A stretch of 64,000 nt of DNA. Origin: an uncultured Chloroflexia bacterium. Lineage in GTDB: Bacteria > Chloroflexota > Limnocylindria > Limnocylindrales > CSP1-4. Position 1 is the stretch's first letter. Each line of letters begins with the position of its first letter. Shown piece after piece: positions 1 to 21,119 of the stretch. The notes beneath the pieces were generated by a model. That model was not told the DNA's origin, made no database searches, and was given only the letters and a program-made list of their open reading frames with translations. The position numbers and the translations under genes were made by a program. The stretch is from contig CAVYIM010000004.1 of the NCBI GenBank assembly GCA_963768655.1, positions 384,001 to 448,000 on the forward strand, given 5' to 3'.

Positions 1-1073
1 ATGAGCTGCCACATGGCGATCGTCGGATCGTTCTTGTAGCGAGAGACCACTTCCTGAACCCACTCGCGGTACGGGACGGTGTTCTGGGGCAGGATCTGCG
101 TCTTGTATCCGCCGGTGTACCAGCTGTCCCACTTGTACTCGCTGGTCGGGCTCTCGCACGAACCCCATTGGTTGGCCAGCGTCACGATCACCTTGACGCC
201 GTGAGCCCTGGCAACGGCCAGGGTGTGGTCGAAGGCGCTCCAGTCGCGCTGCCCGTTGGTCGTGGCCAGGCGCTGGAAGAACCAAGCCCGGATGACCTCA
301 GTCCCCGAACCGATGTCCGTCAGGGCCGTGTCGAGCGCGCTGCCGGTGCCCATCGTGTACGAACAATTGGAGCGGCTGTTGGCCTGGTAGATGTTGAACC
401 CGGTGAACACGAAGGGCTTGCCACCCAGGGTCAACTGTGTGCCCGATCGGCCGACGAAGCCGGTGGGCAGAGGCGTCGGGGCGGGAGCGGCCGTGACGCT
501 GGGTGCCGCGGTGGTCGTCGGCGCCGGGCTGGCAGTCGGCTTGGCAGTCGGGCTGGCCGTCGGCTTGGCAGTCGGGCTGGCCGTCGGCTTGGCAGTCGGC
601 TTGGCGGTCGGGCTGGCTGCCGGCGTCGTTCCGCCTTCGGCGACCGTGAAGGTAGTCGTCAGGGTCGACGTCGTGGCCGATGTCTCGAAGCTGACGGTGA
701 TCGAGTGTGCGCCCTGGGCGACCTTGGTCGTATCCCACGGCTTCGCCTTGCCGGCGGAATCCGTGCCGGCGAAATCGATGGGCGCGGAGTTCTCGACGTG
801 CGTCGCCGTTCCACTCATGTCCGTGTCGTCTAGCCAGAAGCTGGCCTTCTTCACGCCGTCGCCCGGCGACAGGAAGATGTAGACGCTGCCGCCGATCCGG
901 GCGCCCGACAGGGCCACGGCCCCGCTTCGGTCCGACGATCCGGAAACCACAAGGGCGTAGCTGGTGCTCGTGGCTGCCTGGACGATGACCGGGATCAGCA
1001 GCGCTAGGACAAGGCCGACGAGAAGGAACAGGCGCAGCCGGCCGACATGCGGCGTTCGAGAGGTTGGAACCAT
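1..1073 (-). CDS. Secreted GH5 glycoside hydrolase (endo-beta-mannanase/cellulase-like) with N-terminal Ig-like domain and P/T/A/K linker; runs off the left edge
   Basis: Manual translation from ATG 1073 (GGAG upstream): signal peptide MVPTSRTPHVGRLRLFLLVGLVLALLIPVIVQA, linker PTAKPTAS, then GFVGRSGTQLTLGGKPFVFTGFNIY..VIRAWFFQ..FDHTLAVARAHGVKVIVTLANQW..VSRYKNDPTIAMWQL, typical of the GH5 N-terminal half. Absent from the ORF track because no stop lies in the window. Confidence 0.88.
   Translation of the reverse strand, partial: MVPTSRTPHVGRLRLFLLVGLVLALLIPVIVQAATSTSYALVVSGSSDRSGAVALSGARIGGSVYIFLSPGDGVKKASFWLDDTDMSGTATHVENSAPIDFAGTDSAGKAKPWDTTKVAQGAHSITVSFETSATTSTLTTTFTVAEGGTTPAASPTAKPTAKPTASPTAKPTASPTAKPTASPAPTTTAAPSVTAAPAPTPLPTGFVGRSGTQLTLGGKPFVFTGFNIYQANSRSNCSYTMGTGSALDTALTDIGSGTEVIRAWFFQRLATTNGQRDWSAFDHTLAVARAHGVKVIVTLANQWGSCESPTSEYKWDSWYTGGYKTQILPQNTVPYREWVQEVVSRYKNDPTIAMWQL
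525..617 (-). repeat. 12-bp tandem repeat encoding the PTAK/PTAS linker
   Basis: Unit cgg(g/c)(c/t)tggcngt repeated about 8 times. Confidence 0.85.
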
Positions 1074-1542
1074 GTCGTATCTCCGAGAGGCCCGTGGACG
1101 GTACGGGCACGCTTGATCCGTTGGGGCGGCGTGGCGTGGGGGCGGTTTCAACCGTAGACGGCTGACGGGAGCCGCCGACATGGCCTAATGGGGCTTCCGA
1201 AAGGTCGCCCGAAGGTCATCGCCTTAAGGTGGCCCGTTGGGACCACAAGGCGAGTCGATGCTATCGCCCCGCACAACCCCGCGGAAGAGAGGGGACGGGC
1301 CCGCAAAGTCCGTCTGGTGCGCGGGCCAGTCCCGCCGTCTCACGGCTCGACCCGTCGATTGACGCGGCTCATCGACACGCCGGAGTCTTGCCGGGCGGGT
1401 TCTCGCTGCTGCCCCAGGAGACCCGATCGGCTCAGTCGTCCCATTGCCGCGTGGCTCACTCTCGATCGGGGTACCCCTTGCTCAAGACCGCCCTCTGGCC
1501 TCTCTGTACCGAAACCGCATTCGCCGCCGATGGGGGTCTGTC

Positions 1543-3357
1543 GTGAGCGCGGACGCGGTCATCCACGGGGAATCGGACGGCGCTGTCGTGGCACCGTCGC
1601 GCGCCGCGGTGCCCGGCCTCCGCCACCCCGAGTCAGGTGTGGTGGCAGTGGACGGGCAGGCGGGAAGCCTGATGGCGTGGCTTCGGCGCCGCGTTCGGTC
1701 GGGCCGCGTTGCCCTGGCTCTCAGCCGCCCCAGCGAGCGGCTGGTCGTCACGGGTCTGGCCTGGGTTGCGTACATGGCCATTGCCGTGGTCGTGGTTGTC
1801 GTGGACCACAGCATCATCGGCGACGCCTGGAGCCGGGTTGCCAATGCTTACTACGTTCTTTACAGCCGCGATCCCCATCTGGCCGCCATGGGGTTCGTTT
1901 GGAACCCGCTGCCGTCGATTGCGGTTCTGCCGCTGCTCCCTTTGAAGGCCATCTGGCCCGACATGGTGGCCACCGGATTCGCCGGGAGCATCGTGTCGGC
2001 TTTGTGCATGGCCGGCGCGGTCTGGGAGATCCACGGCATCGCGCTCGACTGGAACGTCCGGCGATCGGCAAGGCTGCTGACGACTGTGCTTTTCGCCTTC
2101 AACCCGATGATCCTGTACTACGGCGCCAACGGCATGAGCGAGGCGATGTTCATCGTCACCCTCGTGCTGAGCGTGCGCTATCTCGCTCGCTGGGCGAAGG
2201 ACGGCCAGACCGTTTCGCTCGTGGTCGCGGCGCTCGCCCTGGCGGCCGGGTACATGGCCCGCTATGAAGCGGCCGTGGCCGCCATAGGCGCCTTCGAGGT
2301 GGTCGTCATCGTGTCGGCGCTGCGCAGGAGCGGCGATGCCCGCGACAGGATCGGCGAAGGCCTCGCCGACGCGGCGGTCCTGGCGGCTCCGTTCGCGACC
2401 GTCTTCATTGCGTGGGCGCTGGCCAGCTGGCTGATCGTGGGCGATCCGTTCCAGCAGTTCACGTCCGTGTACGGAGTCGTGTCGCAGCTGGCCGTCGCGC
2501 AATCGAGCGTTGCCCAGCAGACCGGCCAGGGGACGGCTTCGGCCTACACGTGGGTCTTGCGCCAGATCGTCGGGCTCGAGCCGGGCATCCTCATCCTCGG
2601 TCTGCTCGGTCTGATGGTCACGTTCCGCGGGAGGTGGGGATTGACGATGCCGGCGGTGGCGATTCTGGGCGGGGTAGTCGCCTTCGCGGTGTTCGGGTTC
2701 CTCACCGGACGAACGCTCGGCTGGCTGCGCTACTCGATCACCGTTATCCCACTGGCATCGATCCTTGCCCTGGCGATCCTGGCGCCCAATCCGGAGCGCG
2801 TGATGGAGTCTCGGCGCCGGGTCTGGCGCTATCGCGCCATCACCAGCCGGGCCATGGGGTTAGTGGCCGTCGCCGTGGTGGCCCTGGCAGTCCCGATAGG
2901 GGCCATGACGATGCTCGATCCGAGCCAGAACCCGGCCTACGGCGGGGAGGCTTTCCAGCTCCGGCCGATTCTCTTCCCGAACGGACCGCTCGCCACGATC
3001 AATCCATTCGGCCAGTACGACGTCGGTCGCCTGGCGGCCACCTACCTCGACGGCCTGCGCCTGGGCAACGGCAGCGTCCTCGTGGATGGCGCCATGGGTT
3101 TCCCCATCATCCTGGAATCCGACAACCCCACCCAGTTCATCACGACGTCGGATCGCGACTTCCAGGAGGCTCTCCTGGATCCGCCCACCTTCGGAGTGAA
3201 GTACCTGCTCGTGCCCGAAGACGTCGGCTACCAGAGCCTCGACGCGATCAACCGGGCCTACCCGGGAATCTACGAGACGGGCGCCGGAATCGCCCAGCTC
3301 GTCCAGGAGTTTTCCGCCGGCGGCAACAACTGGCGGTTGTACCAGGTAACACAGTGA
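1543..3357 (+). CDS. Polytopic membrane glycosyltransferase, GT-C fold (GT39/PMT-like)
   Basis: Many hydrophobic helices; GDAWSRVANAYYVLYSRDPHLAAMGFVWNPLP loop, NPMILYYGANGMSE, ARYEA motifs; extracytoplasmic C-terminal domain. GTG 1543 chosen as start; ATG 1672 is an alternative. Confidence 0.75.
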   Translation: MSADAVIHGESDGAVVAPSRAAVPGLRHPESGVVAVDGQAGSLMAWLRRRVRSGRVALALSRPSERLVVTGLAWVAYMAIAVVVVVVDHSIIGDAWSRVANAYYVLYSRDPHLAAMGFVWNPLPSIAVLPLLPLKAIWPDMVATGFAGSIVSALCMAGAVWEIHGIALDWNVRRSARLLTTVLFAFNPMILYYGANGMSEAMFIVTLVLSVRYLARWAKDGQTVSLVVAALALAAGYMARYEAAVAAIGAFEVVVIVSALRRSGDARDRIGEGLADAAVLAAPFATVFIAWALASWLIVGDPFQQFTSVYGVVSQLAVAQSSVAQQTGQGTASAYTWVLRQIVGLEPGILILGLLGLMVTFRGRWGLTMPAVAILGGVVAFAVFGFLTGRTLGWLRYSITVIPLASILALAILAPNPERVMESRRRVWRYRAITSRAMGLVAVAVVALAVPIGAMTMLDPSQNPAYGGEAFQLRPILFPNGPLATINPFGQYDVGRLAATYLDGLRLGNGSVLVDGAMGFPIILESDNPTQFITTSDRDFQEALLDPPTFGVKYLLVPEDVGYQSLDAINRAYPGIYETGAGIAQLVQEFSAGGNNWRLYQVTQ

Positions 3358-3442
3358 TCTGGTCGCACGCCTTTCCGGGCGGTCGAGCCAGTGAGTCGAG
3401 CTTGCCGCTGGTTGGCGGTCCCGTGCGCTGGAGGAGTATTCC

Positions 3443-6400
3443 GTGAAGCGATCCCGCGCGGCCAGGTTGGCCGCACTCGCAATCCTGGCCTTTGGCCTGG
3501 CGATGCCGGGCTCCGTGCTCCGACCCGCGCCCGTCGCGGCGACCGGCACCGCGACGGACTGGCCGATGTACCTGCACGACAGCAGCCTATCGGCGGCCAG
3601 CACGGAGACGATCCTCACATCCGCCGCGATTCCGAACCTGCGACCGCTCTGGACGTACAGGACGGGCGGAGTCATCGCCGCATCTGCGACGGTAGTGGGC
3701 GGCGTGGCCTACGTCGGGTCGTGGGACGGGTACGAATACGCGCTCAATGCCACGACCGGCGCCCTCATCTGGAAGACCTACCTCGGGATCACGACCGCGC
3801 CGGCGTGTTCGCCGCCGCAGCTGGGGATCTCGTCGGTCCCGGCCGTCGTCAACGGCGTGGTCTACGTCGGCGGCGGCGACTCGAACTGGTACGCCCTCGA
3901 CGCGTCGACCGGCGCGGTCCTCTGGAGCGTCCCGACCGGAGACAACAGCGCCACGGGCGGCCACTACAACTGGTCCAGCCCTCTCATCGTCGGCAACTAC
4001 GCCTACGTCGGCATCGCCAGCCTGGGCGACTGTCCTCTGGTTCAGGGGCAGCTGTTGAAGGTCGACCTCAACGCCCACGCCATAGTCGCCACGGCCAACT
4101 TCGTCCCGACCGGGCAGGTGGGCGGCGGAGTCTGGACGTCGCCTTCGATCGACCTCTCGACGAACACGATCTACGTCACGACCGGGACCCTGAACAACAT
4201 CGTCCAGACGACGTCCGAGGCCATGGTCTCGCTCGATGCCACGACGCTCGCCATCAAGAGCTACTGGCAGATCCCGCGCAGCGCCGCCAACGCCGATTCG
4301 GACTGGGGCGATTCGCCGATCCTCTTCACCGACGGCAACGGCCGGGCCATGGTCGCCGGGATCAACAAGAACGGGTTCCTCTACGCCTTTGACCGCTCGA
4401 ACCTCGCGCTGGGTCCGATCTGGTCTGAGCAGATCGCCGTGGGAGGAATATGCCCCACGTGCGGTGATGCGAGCGTGTCATCGATGGCCTTCGCCCAGGG
4501 CCTCCTATATGTCGGCGGCGGCAACACCACCATCAACGGTGTGGGCTACCAGGGGGCGATCAGGGCCATCGATCCCACAACCGGCGCCGTCGTCTGGGCG
4601 CGCGGCCTGGCCAGTCCCGTGATCCCCGCGCTTGCCTACGACAACGGCATGGTCTTCGCGGGCGTCGGACCGCGTCTGGAGGTTCTCGACGCCTCGAGCG
4701 GCGCCCGCCTCTTCAGCTACGCCACCGGTGGCGTGATCTACTCTCCGCCATCGATCTCCGGCGGGACCGTGTTCATCGGCTCGGGCGATGGCAACGAGTA
4801 CGCCTTCGCCCCGACGACGCCGACCGTGCCGCCCGCGGATGCCAGCTGCCCGACCGGCCTGCGCTGCCAGGACATCGGCACGCCGGCGCCGGCGGGCAGC
4901 GAAACGGTCACCTCCGGCTCCTGGGCCATCTCCGCCGGCGGCGCCGGCGTGGGTGCGGCCTCCGACCAGCTCCGGCTGATGAGCCAGTCCTGGACCGGCG
5001 ACTTCCAGGCTCAGGTCCGCGTCGCCGCCCAGGCCGTCGTCGGGACGGGGACCGAGTCGGGTCTCATGGCCCGCCAGGCCAACGATCCGAACTCGCCGTT
5101 CTATGCCGCCAGCGTGGCCGGGGGAAACTCAGTCGCCGTCCAGTACCGGACGTCATTCGGCGGGGCGACCAAGACCGTCAAGCTGGCCTCGACGACACTG
5201 CCTCTGTACCTCGAGATCCTTCGCAGCGGCGACGGCTTCAGCGCGGCCAGCTCGCCGGACGGGGTCACATATACGCTCATTCCGGGCAGCTCCGTGACCG
5301 ACGTCATGCCGGACCAGCTCATGGTCGGGCTGTTTGCGACATCCGGGACGAATGGCACAGCCGGCGCCTCCACGCTCGACTCGGTCGTGGTCGGCGCTCC
5401 GGGCACCCCGCCGTCACCTCCCGCTCCGCCCTCGCCATGCCCGTCGGGATGGTCCTGCGGCGACGTCGGCAATCCGGGGACGGTCGGTAGCCAATCGCTC
5501 AGCGCCGGCACCTGGACCATCAGCGGCGCGGGCACGGCCAGCGGCAACAACAGTTACGCCGACCAGTTCCATCTCGTCTGGCAGGCCATCAGCGGCGACG
5601 CGACGCTCTCGGCTCGAGTGGCCACGCAGGCGAACACCTCGGCGAGCGCACAGGCTGGCCTGGTCTTCCGGGCCGACGCATCCACCCCCGGCGCGCTTTC
5701 GTACGGGGCCTTCGTGACGCCGACGAACGGCATCGAGGTGGTCTATCGGAGCTCGACCGGGCTGCGCACCGTCCTGGCCGCTACTGCGTCCGGCGCCGCG
5801 CCGGCGTACCTGCAAGTGACCCGCTACCAGAACATCTTCACCGCGTTCACCTCCCCGGACGGGGTCAACTGGACCGCGGTGGTCGGATCCTCTGTGACCC
5901 TGGGAGCGGGCGGCCCGATGGTGGCCGGCCTTGCGGTCGACTCGAACCTGGCCACGCTCGCCACGGACACCTTCGACACCGTCTCCCTGGCCGGCTCGGC
6001 GTCGCCGCCTCCCAGCCTTTGCCCGTCCGGCTGGACGTGCCAGGACATCGGCTTCCCCACGCCTGCGGCGGGCTCGCAGTCCGTCGTGGGATCGAACCTG
6101 ACCGTCCAGGCCGGCGGTAGCGACATCTGGGGCAGCTACGACAGCTTCCGGCTGCTCAGCCAGCCGCTGGCCGGCGACGGGACCATCAGCGTTCGAGTCG
6201 ATTCGCAGACGAACACCTCGACCTGGGCCAAGGCCGGCGTGATGGTCCGGGCGACCAACGATCCTGCCTCGCCCTACTTCGCCACCTTCATCACGCCCGG
6301 CAACGGCGTCGCGATCCAGTGGCGTACGACGCAGGGCGGGAGCACTTCGCAGGTTCTTGTCGCCGGCACCGTGCCGGCCTGGCTCGAAGTGGCCCGTTCC

Positions 6401-8573
6401 GGCGGCACGTTCACCGCCTACACCTCCGCCGACGGCGTCACCTGGACCGCGGTGCCCGGGGCGAGCGTCGGTCTGACCATGACCGGGACCCTGCTGGCCG
6501 GCCTGGCAGTGACCTCGCACAACGGCAGCGCTATGGGCACGGTCACCTTCGACACGACAACCCTGACCAACGCGTCACCGCCGCCTCCGGGAGCGTGCCC
6601 GACGAGCTGGACGTGCGCCGACATCGGCAACGTCGGCATCGCCGGTGCCCAATCGCTGACCTCCGGGACCTGGACCGTCCAGGGTGGGGGAGGCGACATC
6701 TGGGACGTCGCCGATAACTTCCACTACGTCTGGCAATCGCTCGCCACTGACGGTGGCGTGAGCGCGCGGGTCATCTCGCAGACGAATACCGCCGCGTGGG
6801 CGAAGGCCGGAGTGATGCTCCGCGCCACGACCGATCCCGGCTCACCGTACTACGCCGCCTTCGCGACTCCGGGGAACGGCGTCGCGGTGCAGTGGCGGAC
6901 CGCGCAGGCCGGACCAAGCTCGCAGGTTCTTGCGGCCGGAACCCCTCCGGTCTATCTCAAGGTAGCCCGCGCCGGTGGCTCGTACTCCGCGTACACGTCT
7001 CCTGACGGCGCGACCTGGACCCTCGTCCCGGGATCCACGGTCAACCTCGGACTGACGGGGACGGTCCTGACCGGTCTGGCAGTCACTTCCCACAACTGGG
7101 GCGTGCTGAGCGCGGCGACCTTCGACACCGTGACGTTCGCGCAGCTCGCCGCCGCCGTGGCTCGACGGCGACATCGGCGCCCCGGCCCTGGCAGGCCTGG
7201 CAAGCTCGACCAGCGGAGTCTTCACCGTCAGCGCCGGCGGGACGGATATCTACGGAACGGCCGACCAGCTCCACTTCGTCTACCAGCCGGCCACGGGCGA
7301 CACCACTCTCGGCGCCCGCGTGGCCAGCCAGTCCGGCACGAGTTCATGGGCGCGGGCCGGAGTCATGCTCCGAGCCACAACCAGCGCCGGTTCGCCTTAC
7401 TACGCCGCGTTCGCGACGCCGGGCAACGGCGTGGCGGTGCAGTGGCGCAAGACCCAGGGCGCGTCGACGTCGCAGCTGAAGATCGCCGGAACCGTGCCGA
7501 TCTACCTGGAAGTGGCCCGGTCCGGTAGCACCTTCACCGCGTACACGTCGCCCGACGGGTCGACCTGGACCGCCATCCCGGGATCGAGCGTGACGTTTGC
7601 GACCCCGGCGGCCATCCTGGCGGGCCTGGCGGTCAATTCGCACAATGCCTCCAAGCTCGGCACGGATACCTTCGATTCGGTGTCCCTCGCCGCCTCGGCG
7701 CCGCCACCGCCCAACGACTTCTCGATCGCGGCAACGCCGGCGACCGTTACGGTCGTGGCCGGTAACGCGGGCACCAGCTCCATCGGGACGGCGGTGGTGT
7801 CGGGCGCCGCCGAGTCAATCGCCCTGACGGCGACGGGTCTGCCGGCGGGCGTGACAGCGGGATTCAGCCCGACGTCTGTCTCCACCGGCACCGCCTCAAC
7901 CCTCACTCTGACCGTCGGCGCCACGGCGACGCCCGGGACGTACCCGATCAAGGTCACGGGCACCGCCCCGTCGGCGACCCATTCGACGACCGTGACCCTT
8001 ACCGTGACAGCTCCGCCGCCGCCGGTGCCCAGCCCCTGGGTCGACACGGACGTCGGCGCTCCGCCGGTCGCCGGGTCGGCGTCCTACGCCAGTGGCGTCT
8101 TCACCGTGAACGGCTCGGGTGCCGACATCTTCGGCACGAACGACCAGTTCAACTACGTCTACCAGCCCACGACCGGCAACGGCACGATCATCGCCCGCGT
8201 GACCTCCGTGTCGAACACGAGCTCCAACGCGAAGGCAGGGATCATCTGGAAGGCGTCCACGACTGCCGGATCGCCATACATCCTGATCGCGGCCGCGCCG
8301 TCCGGACTCGTGAAGGTGCAGTACAACTTCACGGGCTCGGTCACTGCCACGACCTACACGTATCCCAACGTCTGGATGAAGCTGGTCCGCTCCGGCAGCT
8401 CGTTCAGCGCATACCTCTCGCCCGACGGCGTCACCTGGACGTCGGTCCTCGCGAACAAGTCCCTGACCACCATCCCGACCGCGGCGACTGTCGGCCTCTT
8501 CGAGTGCTCGCACAGCACGACCAAGCTCGGAACCGCGACCTTTGACAACGTCAGCTTCACTCCGGGGCCATGA
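3443..8573 (+). CDS. Giant secreted protein (~1700 aa): PQQ/BamB-like beta-propeller + 5 ConA-like (DUF1349/beta-xylosidase C-terminal-like) modules + Ig-like + terminal ConA-like module; apparent +1 frameshift near 7141
   Basis: GGAGGAG RBS, signal peptide, DWPMY..YVGSWDGYEYALNATTGALIW propeller repeats, repeated W..DIG..G.DIW...D.FH..KAGVM.R..YTSPDGVTW modules. ORFs 3443-7528 and 7320-8573 join if one base is removed at ~7141 (TFA/SSPPPWLDGDIGAP). Confidence 0.82.
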
Positions 8574-8583: not shown

Positions 8584-9816
8584 GTGACCCATTGGGCTCG
8601 CCGGGCCATGGTGGCGCTCGTTCTGGCCGCGGTTTCGGGTTGCGCCGGATCCGCGGCCGGGGCCACTCCGTCCGGCGGCGCGGGGGGATTGGCCGGGCCG
8701 GCCACTCCAAGCCCCACGGCTTCCACCCCAACGGTCCTGCCCAGCCTGAGCCCCACGCCGGCGCCCACCCCGATGTCCGCGGCGGCCGCGGCCGCGCCGT
8801 GCCTGGCAGGCACGTCGTCCGGGCCGTTCCTTGGCACCGACGGAAAGAACATCACCTGTGCCGGCCAGCCGCTGATTCTGACCGGGTTCACGTTCTATCC
8901 GGCCGTTCTCGGCGGCGCGAAGGCCTGGCACGATCCGAGCTTCCCCGCGTACATCGACCACATCCTCGACATGGGCGCGGCAGCGGGCCAGAACCTGATT
9001 CGGGCGACGGACCAGTGGGACAGCACCACGCCGGGCCAGACGGCAGACGACCCGACCGTCTGGGCCAACATGGACTACCTGCTGACGGCGGCCCGCAAGA
9101 GAGGCGTCTTCGTCGTCATCGATCTATCGGCCTTCCGCTGGCTGCTCGAGAGCCAGGGCACGGACCCGTCGCGCGCCGATCTGTGGACCAGCTTCATCGA
9201 CATGGTGGCGGCCCGCTACCGCGACAACCCGGATGTGGCCTTCTATTCGATCTCGGGGGAACCTGCGCCACCGGCCACCCAGGCCCAGCTGCAGGCCCTG
9301 CTCACGTTCTACCGAACGACGAGCGACGCTCTTCGCAGCGCTGATCCCAACCACCTGATCACGGTCGGCGGTTTCAACCACATGGAAGACCATCCGGAGA
9401 TTGGCTGGTGGCAGTCCATCGACGCTCTGCCGGCCAACGACATCGTCGCCGTCAAGACGTACTCCCAGCACGATCTCGACCTCATGCCGGCGATCGCCGC
9501 CTACGGCCGCTCGGTCGGCAAGCCGGTGGTCGACGAGGAGTTCGGGATGCCACAGGGCTTCGGCGATGGAAGCTTCGCCGGTGGCGCGGCGTACAACGGT
9601 CTGTCGACCGGCCGGGCGCCTTTCTTCGAATCGGTCTACCGCTCCGGCCGGTCCCTCGGGTTTGCCGCGTACATCTTCTGGAACATGGGTTGTCAGATCG
9701 GCCGGACAAGCTACGAGGTGAGCCCGGCGACGCCGGCGACGTGGTCGGTCGTCATTCAGAACGGCGCTGTCGCGGCAGCCGGATCAAACGCTTCGGCTTC
9801 TTCTCTCTGCCCCTGA
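8584..9816 (+). CDS. GH5-family glycoside hydrolase lipoprotein
   Basis: Lipobox LAAVSGC, P/T/S linker, GFTFY..NLIR..MDYLLTAARKRGVFVVIDL..RYRDNPDVAFYSISGEP (acid/base) ..DPNHLITVG..KPVVDEEFG (nucleophile). Confidence 0.8.
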   Translation: MTHWARRAMVALVLAAVSGCAGSAAGATPSGGAGGLAGPATPSPTASTPTVLPSLSPTPAPTPMSAAAAAAPCLAGTSSGPFLGTDGKNITCAGQPLILTGFTFYPAVLGGAKAWHDPSFPAYIDHILDMGAAAGQNLIRATDQWDSTTPGQTADDPTVWANMDYLLTAARKRGVFVVIDLSAFRWLLESQGTDPSRADLWTSFIDMVAARYRDNPDVAFYSISGEPAPPATQAQLQALLTFYRTTSDALRSADPNHLITVGGFNHMEDHPEIGWWQSIDALPANDIVAVKTYSQHDLDLMPAIAAYGRSVGKPVVDEEFGMPQGFGDGSFAGGAAYNGLSTGRAPFFESVYRSGRSLGFAAYIFWNMGCQIGRTSYEVSPATPATWSVVIQNGAVAAAGSNASASSLCP

Positions 9817-13200: not shown

Positions 13201-13898
13201 TCACCGCCGGTGGCTCCTCGAACCTGACCTTCACCGTGACCGGCTCGGTCGCCCCCGGCACCTACCCGATCGGCGTCACCGGTACGGCTCCTTCGGCGAC
13301 ACACGGCACGTCCGTGTCGCTGACCGTGACCGCCCCCGGAGCCCTGCCGTCCCCCTGGGCGGACACCGACGTCGGTGCGCCCTCGCCGGCCGGCTCGGCG
13401 ACCTACAGCGGCGGCGTCTTCAGCGTCAACGGCTCGGGCGCCGACATCTTCGGGACCAACGACCAGTTCAACTACGTCTATGAGGCCAGCGCCGGCAACG
13501 GCACTCTCATCGCCCGGGTCAGCTCCCAGACGAATACCGGCAGCACCAACAGCAAGGCCGGGATCATCTGGAAGGCTTCGACCGTGTCGGGCTCGCCCTA
13601 CATCCTGATCGAGACCGGTCCGAGCGGTGTTGTGAAGGTCCAGTACAACTTCAGCGGCTCGCTCTCGGCGACTTCCACCTACAGCTTCCCCAACGTGTGG
13701 ATGAAGCTCGTCCGTTCGAGCGGCAACTTCAGCGCCTACCTCTCGCCCGACGGCGTCACCTGGACGGCCGTCGTGACCAACAAGAGCCTGCCCACGATCC
13801 CGACCGCCGCGACGATCGGCATCTTCGAGTGTTCCCACAAAGTCGGCGTCCTTGGGACCGCGACCTTCGACAACGTCAGCTTCACCCCAGGGCCCTAG
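10299..13898 (+). CDS. Secreted PQQ-dependent glucose/sorbosone dehydrogenase-family protein with PKD, Ig-like and two ConA-like modules
   Basis: GVLGMALDPNFATNGYMYVAYT, GPDGKLWVSVGD, GKILRFNLDGSIPSDNPF, YAYGLRNPFR, GGNYGW; PKD motif YSWDFGDGS..NPSHVY. Confidence 0.88.
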   Translation: MPAISAPSAPARRAYVANRKISRFLRRAPASLHRLMLATAAVVLASASVLAGAGSISRAAATGNAAFPDLPPGFAKVELAKGLKNPTVFAFGPNGDIYIAQQRGAMLLDRGGVIQPTPVMTLNTDNLTETGVLGMALDPNFATNGYMYVAYTTPDEHAQLSQFTITGGGTTGSLASEVVYMRGNELQSAHHSVNDVHIGPDGKLWVSVGDNDPAITNGQTLTNVYGKILRFNLDGSIPSDNPFVNVPGAVPSIYAYGLRNPFRFTFLPNGKAMTEDTGSNYWEEFDTIQPGGNYGWDFYEGNCFSCGYINPTYAYGHLPTDGAASAVAAYSGNVFPAQYAHTVFFGDYNRTDIEAVQFDPTYTTEISDTVFDSSVGTIADLQEGPDGDLYYVNIYEGQFWKIYPTGPFAPTAAASASPNAGLASLSVQFSSAGSNDPYNLPLSYSWDFGDGSAVSTSPNPSHVYVTNGTYTATLTVSNGTSSAQATTQVVVGNAPPAASIDSPLVGATYSAGDTISFSGSATDALDGTLPASDFTWQVDFIANGVVKPSYFYEVPGPFYGPVSGVSSGSFQIPTDNSNVPSSFYRITMTVTDSLGLSTVVTRDIHPNVTSWTVKSNVAGAKFFVDGTLQAGSYTTSDVVGVQHVLMGLPDQVIGGTEYRLHGWADGSGQTDRFTAGASPATYTVVEDPVTSTLPAGWTSVDVGAPLMAGTTDYSTADQAFYLDGSGTDVYGTNDQFHYTYMTLTGDGTIIARVRYQTNSSPSAKAGVMFKETPTAGANYVAALVYPDVSPNTPNTNGVDCTPDGCAAPLPPIDPTIGKGVKMQYSTTGGISPTSPLANYLYPNKWLKLQRVGNTFTAYQSLDGATWSLIGKKTFTMATTATVGLFVTSHNTGQYSTVGFDNVSVSGAVTLPPNDFSISASPTTVPVTAGTSGSTSITTALVSGSAESIALSATGLPLGVTAGFSPTSVTAGGSSNLTFTVTGSVAPGTYPIGVTGTAPSATHGTSVSLTVTAPGALPSPWADTDVGAPSPAGSATYSGGVFSVNGSGADIFGTNDQFNYVYEASAGNGTLIARVSSQTNTGSTNSKAGIIWKASTVSGSPYILIETGPSGVVKVQYNFSGSLSATSTYSFPNVWMKLVRSSGNFSAYLSPDGVTWTAVVTNKSLPTIPTAATIGIFECSHKVGVLGTATFDNVSFTPGP

Positions 13899-13904: not shown

Positions 13905-16304
13905 ATGGAGCGTCCCCCCATGCGCAACCTGTTCCGTGCCGCCCTCGCGCTCGCCCTCGCCGCCCAGACGGTGCTCGCCGTCGGGCTCGTAGTCGCGCCC
14001 GTGAGGGCCGCCGGGACCGGCGCCGGCGGCCTGCTCGTCTCGGTCGGCTACGCCGAGGACAAGGAGACCAACAACCCCAACCCGGCGGCCTTCCCTGTTC
14101 CGTGGCAGGGATCTCCCAACACGACCTTCCTGGGCGGCCCCGTCGTCGGTCAAACGCAGTGCGGTTCCTTGCCGAGCTGCTTCGACGCCGGCGCCATCAG
14201 GCTCGACAATCCGACCGCCGCGGCGATCTCCGTTTCCAACGTCTCGGTGGACGTCCATTCGTCCATTCCGGGCGGGAAGGTCTTCAGCCTGTGGGGCTCG
14301 TTCGCGGTCCCGGCCGGCCAGAGCGTCATCCTGACGGAGAACCCGCCGGGTGACACGGCGTCCTACGACGACTTCGATACCAGCGGCTACCCGGGCAACG
14401 TTTGCACTCCGATCACTGTCGCACCGACGGTCACGATCACGGTCGGAGGCGCGGCAACGACGCTCGTCGACAGCACTCACGTTCTCGACACGGGCGGCAT
14501 CGACCAGGGCTACTGCGGCACCGGCAACGACAAGAACGAGTCGATCGCGTGGCGGCCGATCGGAGCCGCAGGCGCCGACACGGCCACCCTGAACCTTGCT
14601 CCGGGCGCGGTCACGGAACCCGTCGGCGGGTCCGTCACCGAGACGGCAACCCTGCTCGACGGCGGCGGCAACGGCCTCGCGAATGTGGCTGTCGCCTTCT
14701 CCGTCACGAACGGGCCGAATGCCGGCCAGGCCGGCAGCGCCATCACCAACTCGGTGGGTCAGGCCACCTTCACGTATTCGGACTCCGGTGCGGGTACCGA
14801 CGTCGTGGCCGCGGCCGTAACCACGGTCGGCACGTTCCAGACCCAATCGATGGTCGTCTGGGGCACCGCCACGACTCCCACATGGACCGGCGCCGACATC
14901 GGCTCTCCGCCTCTGGCAGGCAGCGACGTTTTCGCGTCCGGGGTCTGGACGATCTCCGGGTCAGGCCGCGATATCGGCGGAACCTCGGACCAGCTCCACT
15001 TCGTGTCCCAGCCGCTCCCGGGCGACGGCGAGATCAGCGCTCGCGTGATCACTCAGACCAACTCCAACAGCCGCGCGCGGGCGGGCGTGATGCTCCGCCA
15101 GAGCGACGATCCGGCCGCGCCGTTCTATGCCGCGGTCGTCACGCCCGGGGCGGGGATCTGGGTTCTGGAACGGGCCAGCTTCGGCGGTCAGGTCAGCACG
15201 CTGGTTACGACCGCCGGCACGGTTCCGGTCTACCTGCGCGTCGGTCGGGCCGGGTCGAGTACGACTGCGTCCACTTCCGCCGACGGGGTCACATGGACGC
15301 CACTGGCCGGATCGGCGGCATCGTTCCCGGTCAGCGGGACCGTCCTGGCGGGCCTGGCCGTGACTTCGCACACGCTCACGAAGTCGAGCACGGCCACGTT
15401 CGATTCCGTGACTCTCTCCGGCGCGGTGACCCTGCCGCCGAACGACTTCTCCATCTCGGCCAGCCCGACGACGGTGCCGGTCACGGCCGGGACCAGCGGC
15501 TCGACGAGCATCACCACCGCGCTCGTGTCCGGTAGCGCGGAGTCGATCGCCCTGTCCGCGACCGGACTGCCTCTCGGCGTGACCGCCGGCTTCAGCCCGA
15601 CCTCGGTCACCGCCGGTGGCTCCTCGAACCTGACCTTCACCGTGACCGGCTCGGTCGCCCCCGGCACCTACCCGATCGGCGTCACCGGTACGGCTCCTTC
15701 GGCGACACACGGCACGTCCGTGTCGCTGACCGTGACCGCCCCCGGAGCCCTGCCGTCCCCCTGGGCGGACACCGACGTCGGTGCGCCCTCGCCGGCCGGC
15801 TCGGCGACCTACAGCGGCGGCGTCTTCAGCGTCAACGGCTCGGGCGCCGACATCTTCGGGACCAACGACCAGTTCAACTACGTCTATGAGGCCAGCGCCG
15901 GCAACGGCACTCTCATCGCCCGGGTCAGCTCCCAGACGAATACCGGCAGCACCAACAGCAAGGCCGGGATCATCTGGAAGGCTTCGACCGTGTCGGGCTC
16001 GCCCTACATCCTGATCGAGACCGGTCCGAGCGGTGTCGTGAAGGTCCAGTACAACTTCAGCGGCTCGCTCTCGGCGACTTCCACCTACAGCTTCCCCAAC
16101 GTGTGGATGAAGCTCGTCCGTTCGAGCGGCAACTTCAGCGCCTACCTCTCGCCCGACGGCGTCACCTGGACGGCCGTCGTGACCAACAAGAGCCTGCCCA
16201 CGATCCCGACCGCCGCGACGATCGGCATCTTCGAGTGTTCCCACAAAGTCGGCGTCCTTGGGACCGCGACCTTCGACAACGTCAGCTTCACCCCAGGGCC
16301 CTAG
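13905..16304 (+). CDS. Secreted protein: unknown Cys-containing N-terminal domain + Big_1-like Ig + ConA-like + Ig + ConA-like
   Basis: Signal peptide (M)RNLFRAALALALAAQTVLAVGLVVAPVRA; Big_1-like GLANVAVAFSVTNGPNAG..TNSVGQATFTY; C-terminal ~295 aa identical to preceding protein. ATG 13920 is an alternative start. Confidence 0.82.
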   Translation: MERPPMRNLFRAALALALAAQTVLAVGLVVAPVRAAGTGAGGLLVSVGYAEDKETNNPNPAAFPVPWQGSPNTTFLGGPVVGQTQCGSLPSCFDAGAIRLDNPTAAAISVSNVSVDVHSSIPGGKVFSLWGSFAVPAGQSVILTENPPGDTASYDDFDTSGYPGNVCTPITVAPTVTITVGGAATTLVDSTHVLDTGGIDQGYCGTGNDKNESIAWRPIGAAGADTATLNLAPGAVTEPVGGSVTETATLLDGGGNGLANVAVAFSVTNGPNAGQAGSAITNSVGQATFTYSDSGAGTDVVAAAVTTVGTFQTQSMVVWGTATTPTWTGADIGSPPLAGSDVFASGVWTISGSGRDIGGTSDQLHFVSQPLPGDGEISARVITQTNSNSRARAGVMLRQSDDPAAPFYAAVVTPGAGIWVLERASFGGQVSTLVTTAGTVPVYLRVGRAGSSTTASTSADGVTWTPLAGSAASFPVSGTVLAGLAVTSHTLTKSSTATFDSVTLSGAVTLPPNDFSISASPTTVPVTAGTSGSTSITTALVSGSAESIALSATGLPLGVTAGFSPTSVTAGGSSNLTFTVTGSVAPGTYPIGVTGTAPSATHGTSVSLTVTAPGALPSPWADTDVGAPSPAGSATYSGGVFSVNGSGADIFGTNDQFNYVYEASAGNGTLIARVSSQTNTGSTNSKAGIIWKASTVSGSPYILIETGPSGVVKVQYNFSGSLSATSTYSFPNVWMKLVRSSGNFSAYLSPDGVTWTAVVTNKSLPTIPTAATIGIFECSHKVGVLGTATFDNVSFTPGP

Positions 16305-16310
16305 CGGCAA
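15415..16310 (+). repeat. Copy 2 of the 896-bp near-identical direct repeat
   Basis: See 13009-13904. Confidence 0.92.
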
Positions 16311-16629
16311 TGTCTCTGATGAGTGCTCCGAACGATGTCTGCCCGATCCGCGCGTTTTCGCCGGCGGTCTCACGGTGGAGCCCGGAAAGGCACCTCCGTC
16401 TCCCGCTCGCCGGAGAACGAATTGCCGGGTCGGTCGATGGGCTTCGGAGCGGCTCGGACCGGAAGGTCAGGAAAGAGAGGTGACTGGAGAACCCGTGTCC
16501 CAGCCCGGCATCGCCGGGCAGTTCCCACAGTCGATCATCCGGGTCAAGGAGGCGAGACCGCGGGGCCTCGTGACCGGGGGAGCAACGGTTCACCGCGTCT
16601 GCGGCTGGACCCCCCAATTTGGAGGAGCA

Positions 16630-17136
16630 ATGCGAAAAATCGCCTTCGCTGCACTGATCGCGCTCGCTCTGGCTACGGTGAGCGCAGTGCCGGCGCTTGC
16701 CACGTCCGGCAACGACCACGGCGCCACGATCACCGTGACCTGTGCCCTCGACAGGGGTACCCAGGTTGACATCAACGGCAACCTCATCGTGCCCGACGGG
16801 AGCCACGGTCCCGGCGTGGTCTGGCTCTACGGCAGCAAGAACGGCCATACCTGGTACTTCACCTGGCAGGCCAGGATCCTTCATGTCGTGAAGGGCCAGA
16901 CCAGTTACAGCTTCACCTTCGACGCCGACCTCGATTGGAACCACTTCATGGACTACCGGGTCATCGGCTTTGGCACGGAATCCAGGGTGATCAATCGAGA
17001 CGAGTGCGGGTTCCGCGTTCCTGAAGCCCCGGCCTCCCCGCTCCTGCTGCTTGGAGCGTTCCCGGCCGGCGGCCTCGTCGCGGTCAAGGCAACCGGAGTT
17101 CGGGTGCCGATGCCGCACTTCCGCCGCATAGCCTAG
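16630..17136 (+). CDS. Small secreted protein with PEP-CTERM-like C-terminal sorting signal (VPEAP + hydrophobic stretch + basic tail); probable exosortase substrate
   Basis: GGAGGAG RBS; signal peptide MRKIAFAALIALALATVSAVPALA; tail VPEAPASPLLLLGAFPAGGLVAVKATGVRVPMPHFRRIA; directly upstream of exosortase. Confidence 0.75.
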   Translation: MRKIAFAALIALALATVSAVPALATSGNDHGATITVTCALDRGTQVDINGNLIVPDGSHGPGVVWLYGSKNGHTWYFTWQARILHVVKGQTSYSFTFDADLDWNHFMDYRVIGFGTESRVINRDECGFRVPEAPASPLLLLGAFPAGGLVAVKATGVRVPMPHFRRIA

Positions 17137-17260
17137 CTTGCAGCTGGCAGTGGAGCCCCCACGCCAGCGGCCTTCCCAAAGCGGCTTCTCGTGGCCCCGC
17201 CCCGGGCATCCTTTCGTCCGGGGCGGGCCCCGAAACCTGTCGAACCCCAAGGGGGAGCAA

Positions 17261-18925
17261 TTGGACATCGCCACCGCACCAGCCATCAGCCGCGCCGGCT
17301 TCACATCGAGACAGCTACTCGCCAGAGTTCCCGTGAGAGGTCTGGTTCTGGTCGCGTCGGTTGCGCTCGCTTACAACTACTCCCTCGAGACACTGACTCG
17401 CGGGCTCGGCCTCGAGACGCCGCTCGCATACCTCGCTCTCGTGCCCCTCATCGCGCTGCTTCTCGGCGTAGTCAATTTCCGCGTGCAGCCCGATCTCCTG
17501 CCCATCCATGACCGTCAGCTGGACTGGATCGTGGGGCTCTTCCTCGTCGGTGTGGCGGCAGCGATCGATTTGCTGCTGCCGTCGGCCTACTCCGCCGACT
17601 TCTGGCTGCACCGGGTCGACATGCTCGGCCTGCCGTTCTTCGCCGCCGGAATGGTCTGCCTTCTGTGGGGCGTCAGGCGCCTGTGGGCCCTTCGATGGGC
17701 GGTGGCGTTTCTGTTCCTGGCCTGGCCCGACCCGTACGTAACCGTCCTGTCGGCGGCCGTAGGAATCTCGACCGATATGGCTCTGGCGGCTGTGCAGGCC
17801 ACGCTGCAACTCATGCCAGTGGCCCAGCCGGTCGGGGATGGCACTTTCCTGGTAGCGCACGGCACCGACCAGTTCAGCCTGTCCGTCGGGTCCGCTTGCA
17901 GCGGCATCAACAGCTTCGTGGGCTTCGCGATCCTGGGGGCTGCGTTCAACGTGATCTTTCGGGGCGGCATCCTCCGCCGCATCCTCTGGCTGGCCGCCGG
18001 CATGTTGCTGGTCGGCGAGCTGAACGTGATCCGAATCGACCTCATCTTCGTGGCCGGCTGGGCCTTCGGGGAGCCCTTCGCGCTGGACGTCCTCCACCCC
18101 GTCGCCGGGATCATCGTTTTCGGCATCGGAGCGCTGGTCATGATGGAGATAGCTCCCTTCTTCGGGCTGAGGATCCCAGAGCCACCCCTGCGGCATGGGG
18201 CGCCGGTCCCTCCCAGGTCCGTGCCCCATCTGCATTCGGTCAAGCGCGCCGCTCGGAGTCTCCGGATTGCGGCGCCGATGGCGGTGGGCCTCATGCTCGC
18301 CCTTCTGCTGGCGGTTCCCGATGCCAGCTTTGCCCACTACGACTCCCTCGTCGACGCTTTCGGGAGTCCCACGCTCGGTGCCATCGACCCCGGCAGCCTG
18401 AACGTCCCGGGCTGGCAGGGGTCCCCCTCCACTTCGTTCGATCAGGCCACGTCCTATTTCGGTCCCCACGCGACCTGGGAGCGCGTTGCCTTCACGTCCA
18501 CAGACGCTTCCGCGTCGGGCCCGACGGCCGTATATCTGGATGTCATTCGCACCGACGACGCCGGCAGCCTGGCTGCCTACGACGTCGAGGCCTGCTACAA
18601 CTTCCACGGATTCAGCCGGGTTTCTAGCGACTCGGCCAACGTCGGCGCGGGCGTCGAGGCCAAGGTGGCCAGCTTCCGCAGCCCGGTCCAGGCCACTGAT
18701 TGGTCGATCCTCTGGTGGGAGTGGCCCTACGACGCCGGTGGCCAGACCCGCTACGAGCGGCTCGTCCTCCTGGCGCCGCTCGATCCCACAGACCAGCCGA
18801 GTGGGATCAACACTCAGGCGATCTTCACGGCGGCCCAGTCGACAATCGAGTCGATGGCCAGCTCGATCGTGAGCGCCGGCATGAGCGATACCGCCACGGT
18901 CGTAAACCCAGGGACGCAGCCATGA
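17261..18925 (+). CDS. Exosortase/archaeosortase-family protein fused to an EpsI-like extracytoplasmic domain
   Basis: TTG start after GGGGGAG; multiple TM helices; FLFLAWP; triad motifs SACSGINS (Cys), LNVIRI (Arg), LHPVAG (His); C-terminal VYLDV..YDVEACYNFHGF resembles EpsI. Confidence 0.85.
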   Translation: MDIATAPAISRAGFTSRQLLARVPVRGLVLVASVALAYNYSLETLTRGLGLETPLAYLALVPLIALLLGVVNFRVQPDLLPIHDRQLDWIVGLFLVGVAAAIDLLLPSAYSADFWLHRVDMLGLPFFAAGMVCLLWGVRRLWALRWAVAFLFLAWPDPYVTVLSAAVGISTDMALAAVQATLQLMPVAQPVGDGTFLVAHGTDQFSLSVGSACSGINSFVGFAILGAAFNVIFRGGILRRILWLAAGMLLVGELNVIRIDLIFVAGWAFGEPFALDVLHPVAGIIVFGIGALVMMEIAPFFGLRIPEPPLRHGAPVPPRSVPHLHSVKRAARSLRIAAPMAVGLMLALLLAVPDASFAHYDSLVDAFGSPTLGAIDPGSLNVPGWQGSPSTSFDQATSYFGPHATWERVAFTSTDASASGPTAVYLDVIRTDDAGSLAAYDVEACYNFHGFSRVSSDSANVGAGVEAKVASFRSPVQATDWSILWWEWPYDAGGQTRYERLVLLAPLDPTDQPSGINTQAIFTAAQSTIESMASSIVSAGMSDTATVVNPGTQP

Positions 18926-20361
18926 CCACCGTCGCTCGCCCCACTCGCCCGCGCGCCCGCGCTCGCACCGGCATGCTCCAGGCGGATCTAACCGCACGGC
19001 GAACGGTATCGCGTGGACAGCTCATCCTGGGACTGGCGATCCTGACGCTCGTCGTTCTCGGCGTGGTCGTCGCGCCGATGTCGACCGCTGTCGGTCTGAT
19101 CGCGCTCGCCACGCTGGCCTACCTCGCGGCCCTGCTGCACCGGCTGGCGACCTTCTGGCTGTCCCTCCGCCACCCCGACACGGTGGTCATCACGGACGAA
19201 GAGGCTCGATCGTTACCCGAACACTCTCTGCCCGTGTACACGATCCTGGTGCCGGCCTACCACGAACCTTCGGTCATCGCCGCGCTGATCGCCCGCCTCT
19301 CGGAACTCGAGTACCCGGTCGACAAGCTCGATATCCGGTTGCTTCTGGAGCGGGACGACCGCGAGACGATCGACGCCGCAGCAGCCGCCCACCCGGGTCC
19401 TCAATTCACGATCGTGCGAGTTCCGCACTCGGAGCCCAGGACCAAGCCCAAGGCATGCAACTATGGTCTCGAGGGCGCTCGAGGCGACTTCGTGACCATC
19501 TACGACGCCGAGGACCGGCCGGAGCCACTCCAGCTCCGGCGGGCGGTTGCGGCTTTCAGCCGGCTCGGGCCGACCGTGGCCTGCCTGCAGGCGAAGCTGT
19601 CCTATTACAACGCGGAACAGAACCTGCTGACTCGCTGGTTCACGATCGAGTACGCGATGTGGTTCTCCTTCCTTCTGCCCGGCCTAGTCGCGCAGCGCGG
19701 GCCGCTGCCCCTCGGAGGAACCTCCAACCATTTCCGCGGAGAGATCCTCAACGCCGTCGGCGGGTGGGACCCATACAACGTCACCGAAGACGCGGATCTC
19801 GGCATCCGCCTCGCTCGCCGCGGCTATCAGACTCGTGTTCTCGAGAGCACGACGCTCGAAGAAGCCAACAGCGACGTCATCAACTGGATCAAGCAACGGT
19901 CGCGCTGGTACAAGGGCTATCTCCAGACCTGGCTGGTTCACACTCGCCATCCGCGTGAGCTCTGGCGCGAGCTGGGCTGGCGCGGCTTCGTGGGCTTCAA
20001 CCTGTTCGTGGCCGGAACGCCGTTGCTGTCTCTGATCAACCCGGTCTTCTGGCTGCTGACGGCGCTTTGGTTCCTGATCCATCCGCCGGTCATCCTGGCG
20101 CTCTTTCCGGCGTGGCTCTATTACATGAGTCTCGCGGTCATGGTCCTGGGCAACGTCTCGCTCTTCTACAGCTGGCTCGTCAGCGCGCGCATGGCCGGCT
20201 CGTGGAAGCTCGTCTTCGCGTCCTTGCTGATTCCCGTCTATTGGGTGCTGATGTCCCTGGCGGTGATCAAGGCCGCGGTGCAACTGATCAGCGCACCGTC
20301 CTTCTGGGAGAAGACTGTCCACGGCCTGGACGCGACGCCTTCACCGAAGACTGGGACGTAG
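18922..20361 (+). CDS. Processive membrane GT2 glycosyltransferase (XagB/cellulose-synthase-like)
   Basis: YTILVPAYHE, RTKPKACNYGL, IYDAED, LGGTSNHFR, VTEDADLG, QRSRW (QxxRW), N- and C-terminal TM helices; ATGA overlap with exosortase stop. Confidence 0.92.
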   Translation: MTTVARPTRPRARARTGMLQADLTARRTVSRGQLILGLAILTLVVLGVVVAPMSTAVGLIALATLAYLAALLHRLATFWLSLRHPDTVVITDEEARSLPEHSLPVYTILVPAYHEPSVIAALIARLSELEYPVDKLDIRLLLERDDRETIDAAAAAHPGPQFTIVRVPHSEPRTKPKACNYGLEGARGDFVTIYDAEDRPEPLQLRRAVAAFSRLGPTVACLQAKLSYYNAEQNLLTRWFTIEYAMWFSFLLPGLVAQRGPLPLGGTSNHFRGEILNAVGGWDPYNVTEDADLGIRLARRGYQTRVLESTTLEEANSDVINWIKQRSRWYKGYLQTWLVHTRHPRELWRELGWRGFVGFNLFVAGTPLLSLINPVFWLLTALWFLIHPPVILALFPAWLYYMSLAVMVLGNVSLFYSWLVSARMAGSWKLVFASLLIPVYWVLMSLAVIKAAVQLISAPSFWEKTVHGLDATPSPKTGT

Positions 20362-21110: not shown

Positions 21111-21119
21111 TCGAGTATG

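Follow-up and report, generated by a model that had tools for sequence, protein, structure and literature searches.

A putative partnership between an exosortase without a subfamily name and a synthase-type glycosyltransferase in a Limnocylindria-type bacterium

What exosortases attach their substrates to has been an open question since these enzymes were proposed in 2006. A stretch of DNA from an uncultured Chloroflexia bacterium raises it in a simple setting: a single enzyme with a single small substrate, next to two or three glycan enzymes, in cells that probably lack an outer membrane. The stretch, here called the window, comprises the 64,000 nucleotides (nt) from position 384,001 to 448,000 of contig CAVYIM010000004.1 (GCA_963768655.1). 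It carries an accessory island of about 21 kb with a G+C content of 66-70%, which we analysed through lists of open reading frames (ORFs), their translations and scans against Pfam and NCBIfam. We consider it somewhat probable that the island holds a one-enzyme, one-substrate exosortase system whose genes are linked to those of a surface-glycan module that uses a synthase and not Wzx/Wzy. Its genes form a conserved accessory unit, whose core of target, exosortase, synthase-type family 2 glycosyltransferase (GT2), GT-C transferase and family 5 glycoside hydrolase (GH5) spans three monoderm phyla. All parts that an initial annotation had named in this DNA are present in the block (Pfam, NCBIfam, translations), some of them in corrected form:

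1-1181, minus strand: first GH5 enzyme (PF00150, 3.2e-13); the gene passes the left edge of the window.
1672-3357, plus strand: membrane glycosyltransferase of predicted GT-C fold, 561 amino acids (aa) (PMT_2, 25.4 bits; structure model; Foldseek).
3443-8573, plus strand: large secreted protein 1 (Pfam; three-frame reading; alignment to locus L013).
8608-9816, plus strand: second GH5 enzyme, with a lipoprotein-like signal (PF00150, 2.9e-13).
10299-13898, plus strand: large secreted protein 2 (GSDH, 1.7e-46; PKD, 7e-20; DUF1349, 4e-10).
13905-16304, plus strand: large secreted protein 3 (Pfam; repeat families D1-D5).
16630-17136, plus strand: putative exosortase target, 168 aa (signal peptide; VPEAP, hydrophobic helix and basic tail).
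17333-18925, plus strand: exosortase, 530 aa from GTG 17333, in a frame open from 17138 (PF09721, 64 bits).
18922-20361, plus strand: predicted synthase-type GT2, 479 aa (Glyco_trans_2_3, 2.5e-25).

The exosortase is the only one matched in the 3.37-Mb host genome. It scores well above the cut-off of PF09721 (64 bits against 25.7), a model that 16 of the 16 family members also match, and above that of the TIGR04178 signature (42.2 against 23), and it stays below the cut-off of the broader TIGR02602 model (55.5 against 105.55). None of the named subfamilies in NCBIfam 20.0 (XrtA, B, D, G, H, V, W and X, CrtC and ArtC) reaches its cut-off: the best scores were those of XrtV (47 against 313), XrtA (47.1 against 208) and XrtW (39.6 against 425), and XrtG (TIGR03110) gave 16.4 bits against 102.75. 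With all of these values far below the cut-offs, the enzyme stands outside the named subfamilies, as had been supposed, and is, judged by family models, a member of a subfamily without an NCBIfam name. We found no paper joining Dormibacterota with exosortase, and no publication on this subfamily in a literature search with incomplete coverage of subscription papers.

The Cys/Arg/His set of the superfamily (C189, R234, H255) is invariant in a 16-sequence alignment (A1) of the enzyme with relatives that are 41-85% identical. Its 8-helix core is succeeded by a further membrane helix and by an ectodomain, conserved and about 200 aa long. Sequence searches of PDB with the exosortase profile gave no match, and neither did Foldseek at E≤0.001 with the structure model, in which the membrane core is weakly modelled (predicted local distance difference test, pLDDT, of 40-67 over the first 140 residues). 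The ectodomain, modelled with a pLDDT of 80-94, is nearest in fold to Mog1/PsbP/DcrB/LpqN (VIA-align Z 9.2, root-mean-square deviation 3.8 over 144 residues); this Z is slightly higher than the 7-8 typical of unmatched models. The initial annotation had read this gene as an exosortase-EpsI fusion. The exosortase part is borne out by PF09721; the EpsI part fails with family models, as 0 of the 16 family members match PF11984 at E≤1, the ectodomain finds no NCBIfam family at E≤10, and a six-frame search of the host genome for EpsI (PF11984/TIGR02914) gave no match. Two weak hints are left. In an hhalign comparison of the ectodomain alignment (A3) with 8 Chloroflexota EpsI proteins, 41 columns were aligned with a probability of 6.3% (E 0.0059), over one common Glu-x-Cys-Tyr motif, and in a protein-language-model Atlas the top three named clusters score 0.89-0.90, with 16-17% of their members carrying PF11984. 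An EpsI-like ectodomain is thus possible but unproven.

The putative substrate is encoded directly upstream, with a GGAGGAG ribosome-binding site 5 nt before its ATG. Read from the translation, the protein has the three-part architecture of PEP-CTERM-like targets behind a signal peptide at the N-terminus and a domain of about 110 aa, namely VPEAP, a hydrophobic helix and a basic tail at the extreme C-terminus. In the host genome, a crude regular expression for Pro-Glu tails matched 38 times, and only here is the tail accompanied by a convincing hydrophobic helix; it is in the sense of this crude search that the system has, as initially proposed, a single target. Each of the 9 same-genus loci has a homologous target gene immediately before the exosortase gene, and two of them have a tandem pair there. 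In other loci labelled Chloroflexota or Dormibacterota, the upstream gene encodes a different small secreted protein (164-235 aa), which ends in [VI]PE[AV]P, a helix and Arg/Lys and matches no PEP-CTERM model.

In locus L041 (L041:3167-13289) and most other loci labelled Acidimicrobiaceae (L038-L102), the exosortase homologue comes after phosphate-transporter genes. The PstS-like binding proteins of these loci carry tails of the LAxTG or MAGTG type, which include a helix and a cluster of Arg, and a sortase gene comes next. No PE-type tail was seen upstream in these loci.

Downstream, the ATG of the GT2 gene overlaps the TGA of the exosortase gene (ATGA at 18922-18925). In the GT2 translation, two helices at the N-terminus precede a GT-A domain that has the TED and QRSRW motifs, and a helix bundle lies at the C-terminus; the QRSRW motif had been reported in the initial annotation, together with translational coupling to the exosortase gene, and is found as described. 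The protein exceeds the cut-offs of PF13632 (89.9 against 27) and PF13641 (87.9 against 27), and its best PDB sequence match is BcsA (2.6e-12). By these features it is a synthase-type enzyme, predicted to be processive. It lies below the equivalog cut-offs of BcsA (TIGR03030, 55.7 against 699.1) and PgaC (TIGR03937, 42.1 against 422.3), as well as that of the XrtG-associated GT2 model (TIGR03111, 19.1 against 363.95). GT2s adjoining exosortases in other phyla are 52-63% identical to it, and the Joint Genome Institute (JGI) names its relatives either 'glycosyltransferase XagB' (47-52% identical) or 'cellulose synthase/PNAG synthase-like'. Long-form relatives number at least 1800 at E≤1e-30. Most of the long relatives (840-1390 aa, P0131-P0242) have an N-terminal PF05157 domain (T2SS-E N-terminal/MshEN-type), which the 479-aa form of the window lacks. 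Since PF05157 can bind cyclic di-GMP, the long forms may be differently regulated.

Do these genes belong together? Within a genus set of 51 genomes, including that of the window, 13 genomes have the exosortase, and exactly these 13 have the GT2. The GT-C gene is found in 12 of them, the exception being a fragmented genome that is 79% complete, and none of the three genes was found in the remaining 38 genomes. All 9 same-genus loci retain the order target-exosortase-GT2, and the full order from GT-C to GT2 is preserved in 3 of the 3 loci with long flanks, at protein identities of 54-85%. In one of these three (G008:C17; L011/L012/L017), the exosortase match is split and contains in-frame TGA codons, and the GT-C gene and the gene for the PQQ protein are also split; decay of the island or an error-prone assembly could account for this.

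Beyond the genus, a scan of one genome per species yielded 196 loci with an exosortase relative, of which we examined the best 80. A GT2 more than 45% identical to that of the window is present in 43 of these 80, including 17 of 19 loci labelled Chloroflexota, 4 of 4 labelled Dormibacterota and 19 of 52 labelled Actinomycetota. The GT-C enzyme is found in 25 of the 80; in the window's own genus it lies about 15 kb away, outside the flanks. GH5 matches (E<1e-6, more than 150 aligned residues) occur in 32 of the 80, in all three phyla. Pfam annotation of eight loci outside the genus showed the order target-exosortase-GT2-GT-C-GH5 in L046 (labelled Limnocylindrales) and in L084 (labelled Dormibacteria). 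The latter has in addition a GH113, a further GH5 and, directly after the GT-C gene, a small PF00535-type GT2 of 286 aa (L084:14730-15587, plus strand), which has no counterpart in the window block and may produce the lipid-linked sugar donor that the GT-C would use. The co-occurrence expected by the initial annotation was thus borne out, with the genes behaving as a unit both in the genus and in the wider loci.

In an exosortase tree from a quick search, with midpoint root and SH-aLRT (Shimodaira-Hasegawa-like approximate likelihood ratio test) values as its only support, the enzymes split by phylum label, and the GT2 gene directly follows the exosortase gene in 22 of the 23 entries of the Chloroflexota and Dormibacterota clades. 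Four loci (L037, L044, L058, L098) have the exosortase on contigs titled Verrucomicrobiia, Melainabacteria or Saccharimonadales. In the tree, L058 and L098 fall with Dormibacterota-type entries and L044 with an Actinomycetota entry, and L037 is too short to place; the bins of these four may be mislabelled or contaminated.

The GT-C transferase was recognised by its fold. Its PMT_2 (PF13231) score of 25.4 bits is just below the cut-off of 26.1, 8 of the 19 family members match that model at E≤0.1, and sequence searches of PDB gave nothing for the protein itself and only chance-level rows for its profile. The structure model (pLDDT 86.6, predicted template modelling score 0.89) matched 21 PDB entries at E≤0.001 in Foldseek, all 21 of them GT-C enzymes, with TM about 0.5; they include STT3/AglB, ALG12, ALG9, AftD, ArnT, AftB and Emb. 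D51, R55 and D67 are invariant in the family alignment (A2), with the conserved Asp and Arg in the first outside loop, and a small soluble domain is found at the C-terminus. On this model we regard the fold, and with it the GT-C transferase of the initial annotation, as settled; the matches are to several kinds of GT-C enzyme.

Gene fusions connect the two transferases. In an Actinosynnema strain, one protein (P0125) joins a GT2 that is 58% identical to that of the window to an orthologue of the window GT-C, 38% identical to it over 514 residues (E 3e-89). No other single observation speaks as strongly for a shared pathway of the window GT2 and GT-C. In another protein (P0123) the GT2 is fused to a different membrane transferase, of the GT87 type. 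Three Actinomycetota proteins (L072, P0126, P0127) fuse the GT2 to a sortase domain; that of L072, from the complete genome of an Aquihabitans isolate, has 795 aa (L072:15423-17807, plus strand), residues 112-390 forming the GT2 and 598-699 the sortase. The sortase fusions tie the GT2/GT-C pathway to protein anchoring. A separate sortase gene comes after the GT-C or the exosortase gene in L069 and L041, and the host genome of the window has one weak sortase match.

Of the two GH5 enzymes, the first is oriented divergently to the GT-C gene and has the N-terminal 393 of its 560 aa inside the window, with about 500 nt beyond the left edge (full ORF, L104:7500-9182, minus strand). It consists of a signal peptide, an immunoglobulin (Ig)-like region, a Pro/Thr linker and the GH5 domain, and its best PDB sequence matches are GH5 endo-beta-1,4-mannanases (3ziz, 5.1e-19, and others). 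In the second, a Cys that follows a hydrophobic stretch gives the signal a lipoprotein-like character, and a Pro/Ser/Thr linker is present. The gene is syntenic in L013, L016 and L017, and the PDB sequence matches of its product were weak and ambiguous, to a GH5 mannanase (1.3e-4) and to endoglucanases (1.7e-4). Both clear the PF00150 cut-off of 23.5 by a wide margin (50.4 and 50.2 bits). The initial count of two GH5 genes is right, the pair consisting of 8608-9816 and the gene on the minus strand that passes the left edge. ORF 7320-8573 is not a GH5 and was rejected; it encodes the C-terminal part of large protein 1, behind a 1-nt frameshift.

The three large secreted proteins share, as had been claimed, a C-terminal module, composed of an Ig-like region and DUF1349; a PDB sequence search with a DUF1349 module gave no match. 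In protein 1, about six DUF1349 modules and an Ig-like region come after a PQQ/BamB-like beta-propeller. Protein 2 combines a glucose/sorbosone-dehydrogenase-type (GSDH) propeller with PKD and Ig domains and a pair of DUF1349 modules, and protein 3 has another such pair alongside an Ig-like (Big_1) region. The 3' ends of the genes for proteins 2 and 3 (13009-13898 and 15415-16304) are near-identical: the two proteins agree fully over their final 290 aa and the genes over their final 267 nt, which indicates a recent duplication or gene conversion. The contigs of several relatives stop at most about 1.6 kb upstream of the exosortase gene, near the repeated genes for large proteins. Large DUF1349 proteins also flank the cassette in the Dormibacterota-type loci L047, L058, L073 and L092 and were not found in loci labelled Actinomycetota.

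What kind of envelope would such a system serve? The host is a Chloroflexota-type bacterium from soil or peat, and in its genome, 88.6% complete, we found 0 matches to Omp85 and 0 to LpxC, with control searches positive in diderm genomes only. This fits a monoderm, in agreement with the initial annotation, and we take the host to be of the Limnocylindria type and probably a monoderm. Genomes of the same order measured 1.0-1.4 Mb, in keeping with a size contrast known in this class. One Limnocylindria family has genomes near 1.3 Mb, its sister families 2.4-3.2 Mb at 68% G+C, according to the accessible part of a genomics paper (PMC13212565), which contains no mention of exosortase, PEP-CTERM, glycosyltransferase or monoderm. 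Scans of the ORFs in the block and its flanks with Pfam and NCBIfam found none of the Wzx, Wzy, Wzc or outer-membrane export families, as previously stated; having no gene for a flippase, polymerase, co-polymerase or outer-membrane exporter, the block is not a Wzx/Wzy-dependent exopolysaccharide (EPS) locus. A TetR gene (20475-21251) comes after the GT2 gene on the opposite strand; it was considered as a regulator of the block and rejected, as it adjoins the GT2 in no related locus.

These parts can be assembled into a plausible mechanism, which is inferred throughout. The GT2 would polymerise and export a beta-linked glycan, perhaps beta-mannan-like, and the GT-C enzyme, on the outer face of the membrane, would use a lipid-linked sugar to decorate, prime or transfer it. 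The GH5 enzymes would cut or release the glycan, in the way that BcsZ and PgaB serve their own synthases. After cleavage of the VPEAP tail, the exosortase would transfer the target to an acceptor supplied by the module, either the glycan or a glycolipid, whereby the target would be retained on a cell without an outer membrane. The DUF1349 (ConA-like) modules of the large propeller enzymes may bind the same glycan, in the window lineage and in some Dormibacterota-type loci. That the GT2 product is beta-mannan-like is a reasonable guess and no more, made because of the mannanase-like GH5 enzymes, the GH113 in L084 and the XagB naming of GT2 relatives. A more specific version would make the glycan from GT2 and GT-C, or its lipid-linked form, the exosortase acceptor itself, so that the protein becomes joined covalently to a beta-mannan-like polymer, with a sortase doing likewise for LAxTG proteins in Acidimicrobiia. 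We consider this version doubtful; if true, it would constitute a protein-to-polysaccharide anchoring pathway common to monoderm Chloroflexota, Dormibacterota and Actinomycetota.

The GH5 enzymes and the large proteins could also be read as a hemicellulose catabolic set, with GH5 mannanases, PQQ/GSDH dehydrogenases and DUF1349 as a carbohydrate-binding module, that lies beside an independent exosortase cassette. The GH5 enzymes would then feed on environmental mannan and would not trim a glycan of the cell's own. We hold this to be unlikely. It agrees with the endo-beta-1,4-mannanases among the best PDB matches of the first GH5, with the dehydrogenase-type propellers and with the lack of large DUF1349 proteins in Actinomycetota-labelled loci. 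The two halves that it separates are, however, either both found or both missing in the genus, from the GT-C gene at the left end to the exosortase and GT2 genes at the right, and relatives with 54-85% protein identity keep the full gene order. GH5 enzymes occur near the exosortase in all three phyla (the 32 of 80 loci above), and in the four Dormibacterota-type loci it is again the cassette that the large DUF1349 proteins flank.

Somewhat less probable still, in our view, is that the GT2 makes a polyprenyl-phosphate sugar, which the GT-C enzyme passes to the target or to another envelope molecule, without any glycan coat, in parallel to GtrB/GtrC, CsbB/YfhO and Ppm1/Pmt. A donor-maker joined to its donor-user would look like the fusion P0125, and the GT-C model resembles oligosaccharyl-, mannosyl- and arabinosyltransferases equally. 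The hallmarks of the GT2 itself argue for a synthase instead (TED, QRSRW, the C-terminal helix bundle, Glyco_trans_2_3 and BcsA as best PDB match); the separate small PF00535-type GT2 of L084 fits the role of donor-maker better, and the conserved GH5 neighbours imply a polymer. Finally, we regard it as improbable that the exosortase anchors the target to a membrane lipid, like the archaeosortase ArtA, with the glycosyltransferase genes merely co-located. Lipid anchoring is reportedly the sole outcome demonstrated for the exosortase/archaeosortase superfamily (PMC7157517), and no evidence here identifies the acceptor, but in 22 of the 23 Chloroflexota and Dormibacterota clade entries the exosortase gene has the GT2 gene as its immediate downstream neighbour, the stop and start codons of the two genes overlap in the window, and Actinomycetota proteins combine this GT2 with a sortase domain.

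Several points weigh against the exosortase-linked, synthase-type glycan module that we favour. The roles of the enzymes are read from family and neighbourhood, the fold match of the GT-C protein does not tell its acceptor, and the mannan link comes from distant GH5 similarity and from a name given to GT2 relatives. Neither the target nor its last 48 residues match the PEP-CTERM models TIGR02595/PF07589 at E≤10. No such GT2 is present within 10 kb in 33 of the 52 Actinomycetota-labelled loci, and since the relatives are kin, the co-occurrence counts overstate independence. We found no RNA sequencing run with the window sequence; the sole matching run had 0.14 of the sampled words. Further, the gene for large protein 1 has in this assembly a 1-nt frameshift in a GC-rich stretch near 7140-7150, which splits it into ORFs 3443-7528 and 7320-8573. 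In the relative G003 it is one ORF of 1709 aa, and no bridging of the frameshift was seen among the short, low-depth contigs listed from the reads of one run. Because of this frameshift and the stops inside the G008 exosortase, some copies of the island may be decaying.

With its simple composition, the subfamily may help to answer what exosortases attach their substrates to. Cultured actinomycetes with complete genomes are among its carriers, namely the Aquihabitans isolate with L072 and the Actinosynnema strain with the fused GT2-GT-C protein, and this together with the simplicity of the system makes the acceptor question directly testable. For PEP-CTERM-type sorting, the system would add Actinomycetota and soil lineages of the Chloroflexota type to the known range; in neither did the original survey, as far as its accessible text goes, find any case. 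It would also provide a first functional context for the large XagB-like GT2 family with its at least 1800 long-form relatives.

How does the system compare with those already known? In the GtrA/GtrB/GtrC and CsbB/GtcA/YfhO systems, a GT-C enzyme outside the membrane uses a lipid-linked sugar and is partnered with a GT2. ArnT, AftD, AftB and Emb are among the fold matches of the window GT-C, a likeness that extends to the mycobacterial GT-C enzymes. The window GT-C has, however, no sequence-level membership in these families, its GT2 partner is predicted to be of the synthase and not of the GtrB type, and no flippase gene is in the block. In the BcsA-BcsZ and PgaC-PgaB pairs, a QxxRW membrane GT2 polymerises and exports the glycan and a glycoside hydrolase is encoded in the same locus. 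The window resembles them in the BcsA match of its GT2 and in the hydrolase genes alongside, and differs in having no BcsB, PilZ or PgaA/D partners and in staying below the equivalog cut-offs.

According to the accessible text of PMC8042644 and PMC3609779, Xanthomonas depends on XagB for a biofilm polysaccharide, and its biofilm is dispersed by a beta-1,4-mannanase. The likeness to this XagABCD/ManA system consists in the naming of GT2 relatives (47-52% identical to the window GT2) as XagB and in the mannanase-like GH5 and GH113 enzymes that accompany the GT2; as regards XagB, it is drawn from JGI names of relatives. The Xanthomonas host is a diderm proteobacterium, and the system has no exosortase or GT-C partner.

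The PEP-CTERM/EpsH (XrtA) system shares with the window, as far as the accessible text describes it, the superfamily, the Cys/Arg/His set, a tail of P-E-x-P, helix and basic residues and the vicinity of polysaccharide genes. In the accessible text of Haft 2006 (PMC1569441), PEP-CTERM was reported only from bacteria that have an outer membrane and EPS genes. The median number of targets per genome was eight, the EPS loci were under PrsK/PrsR/PrsT regulation, and some EpsH proteins had a fused C-terminal EpsI region. In contrast, the window host is probably a monoderm, its target is single, its glycan genes are of the predicted synthase type, and the ectodomain of its exosortase falls outside the EpsI models.

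The closest counterpart is the XrtG system of Firmicutes, which comprises a Firmicu-CTERM protein, XrtG and two glycosyltransferases according to the accessible text of PMC12854382. Like the window, it combines a monoderm host with one target, one exosortase and two glycosyltransferases (TIGR03110, TIGR03111); the associated GT2 is of the synthase type, and Wzx/Wzy genes are absent. The initial annotation had proposed an undescribed system, and this claim does not hold for the general design, since a single target with an exosortase and glycosyltransferases in a monoderm is already described in XrtG/Firmicu-CTERM. The window exosortase and GT2 are nevertheless far below the TIGR03110 and TIGR03111 cut-offs. 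The XrtG model has 187 positions, without the extra helix and ectodomain of the window enzyme, and the window differs further in its VPEAP signal, its second transferase of predicted GT-C fold and the added GH5 enzymes and large DUF1349 proteins. What is known, then, is the XrtG-like overall design; what is new is an exosortase subfamily without a name and its distinctive partnership with GT2 and GT-C.

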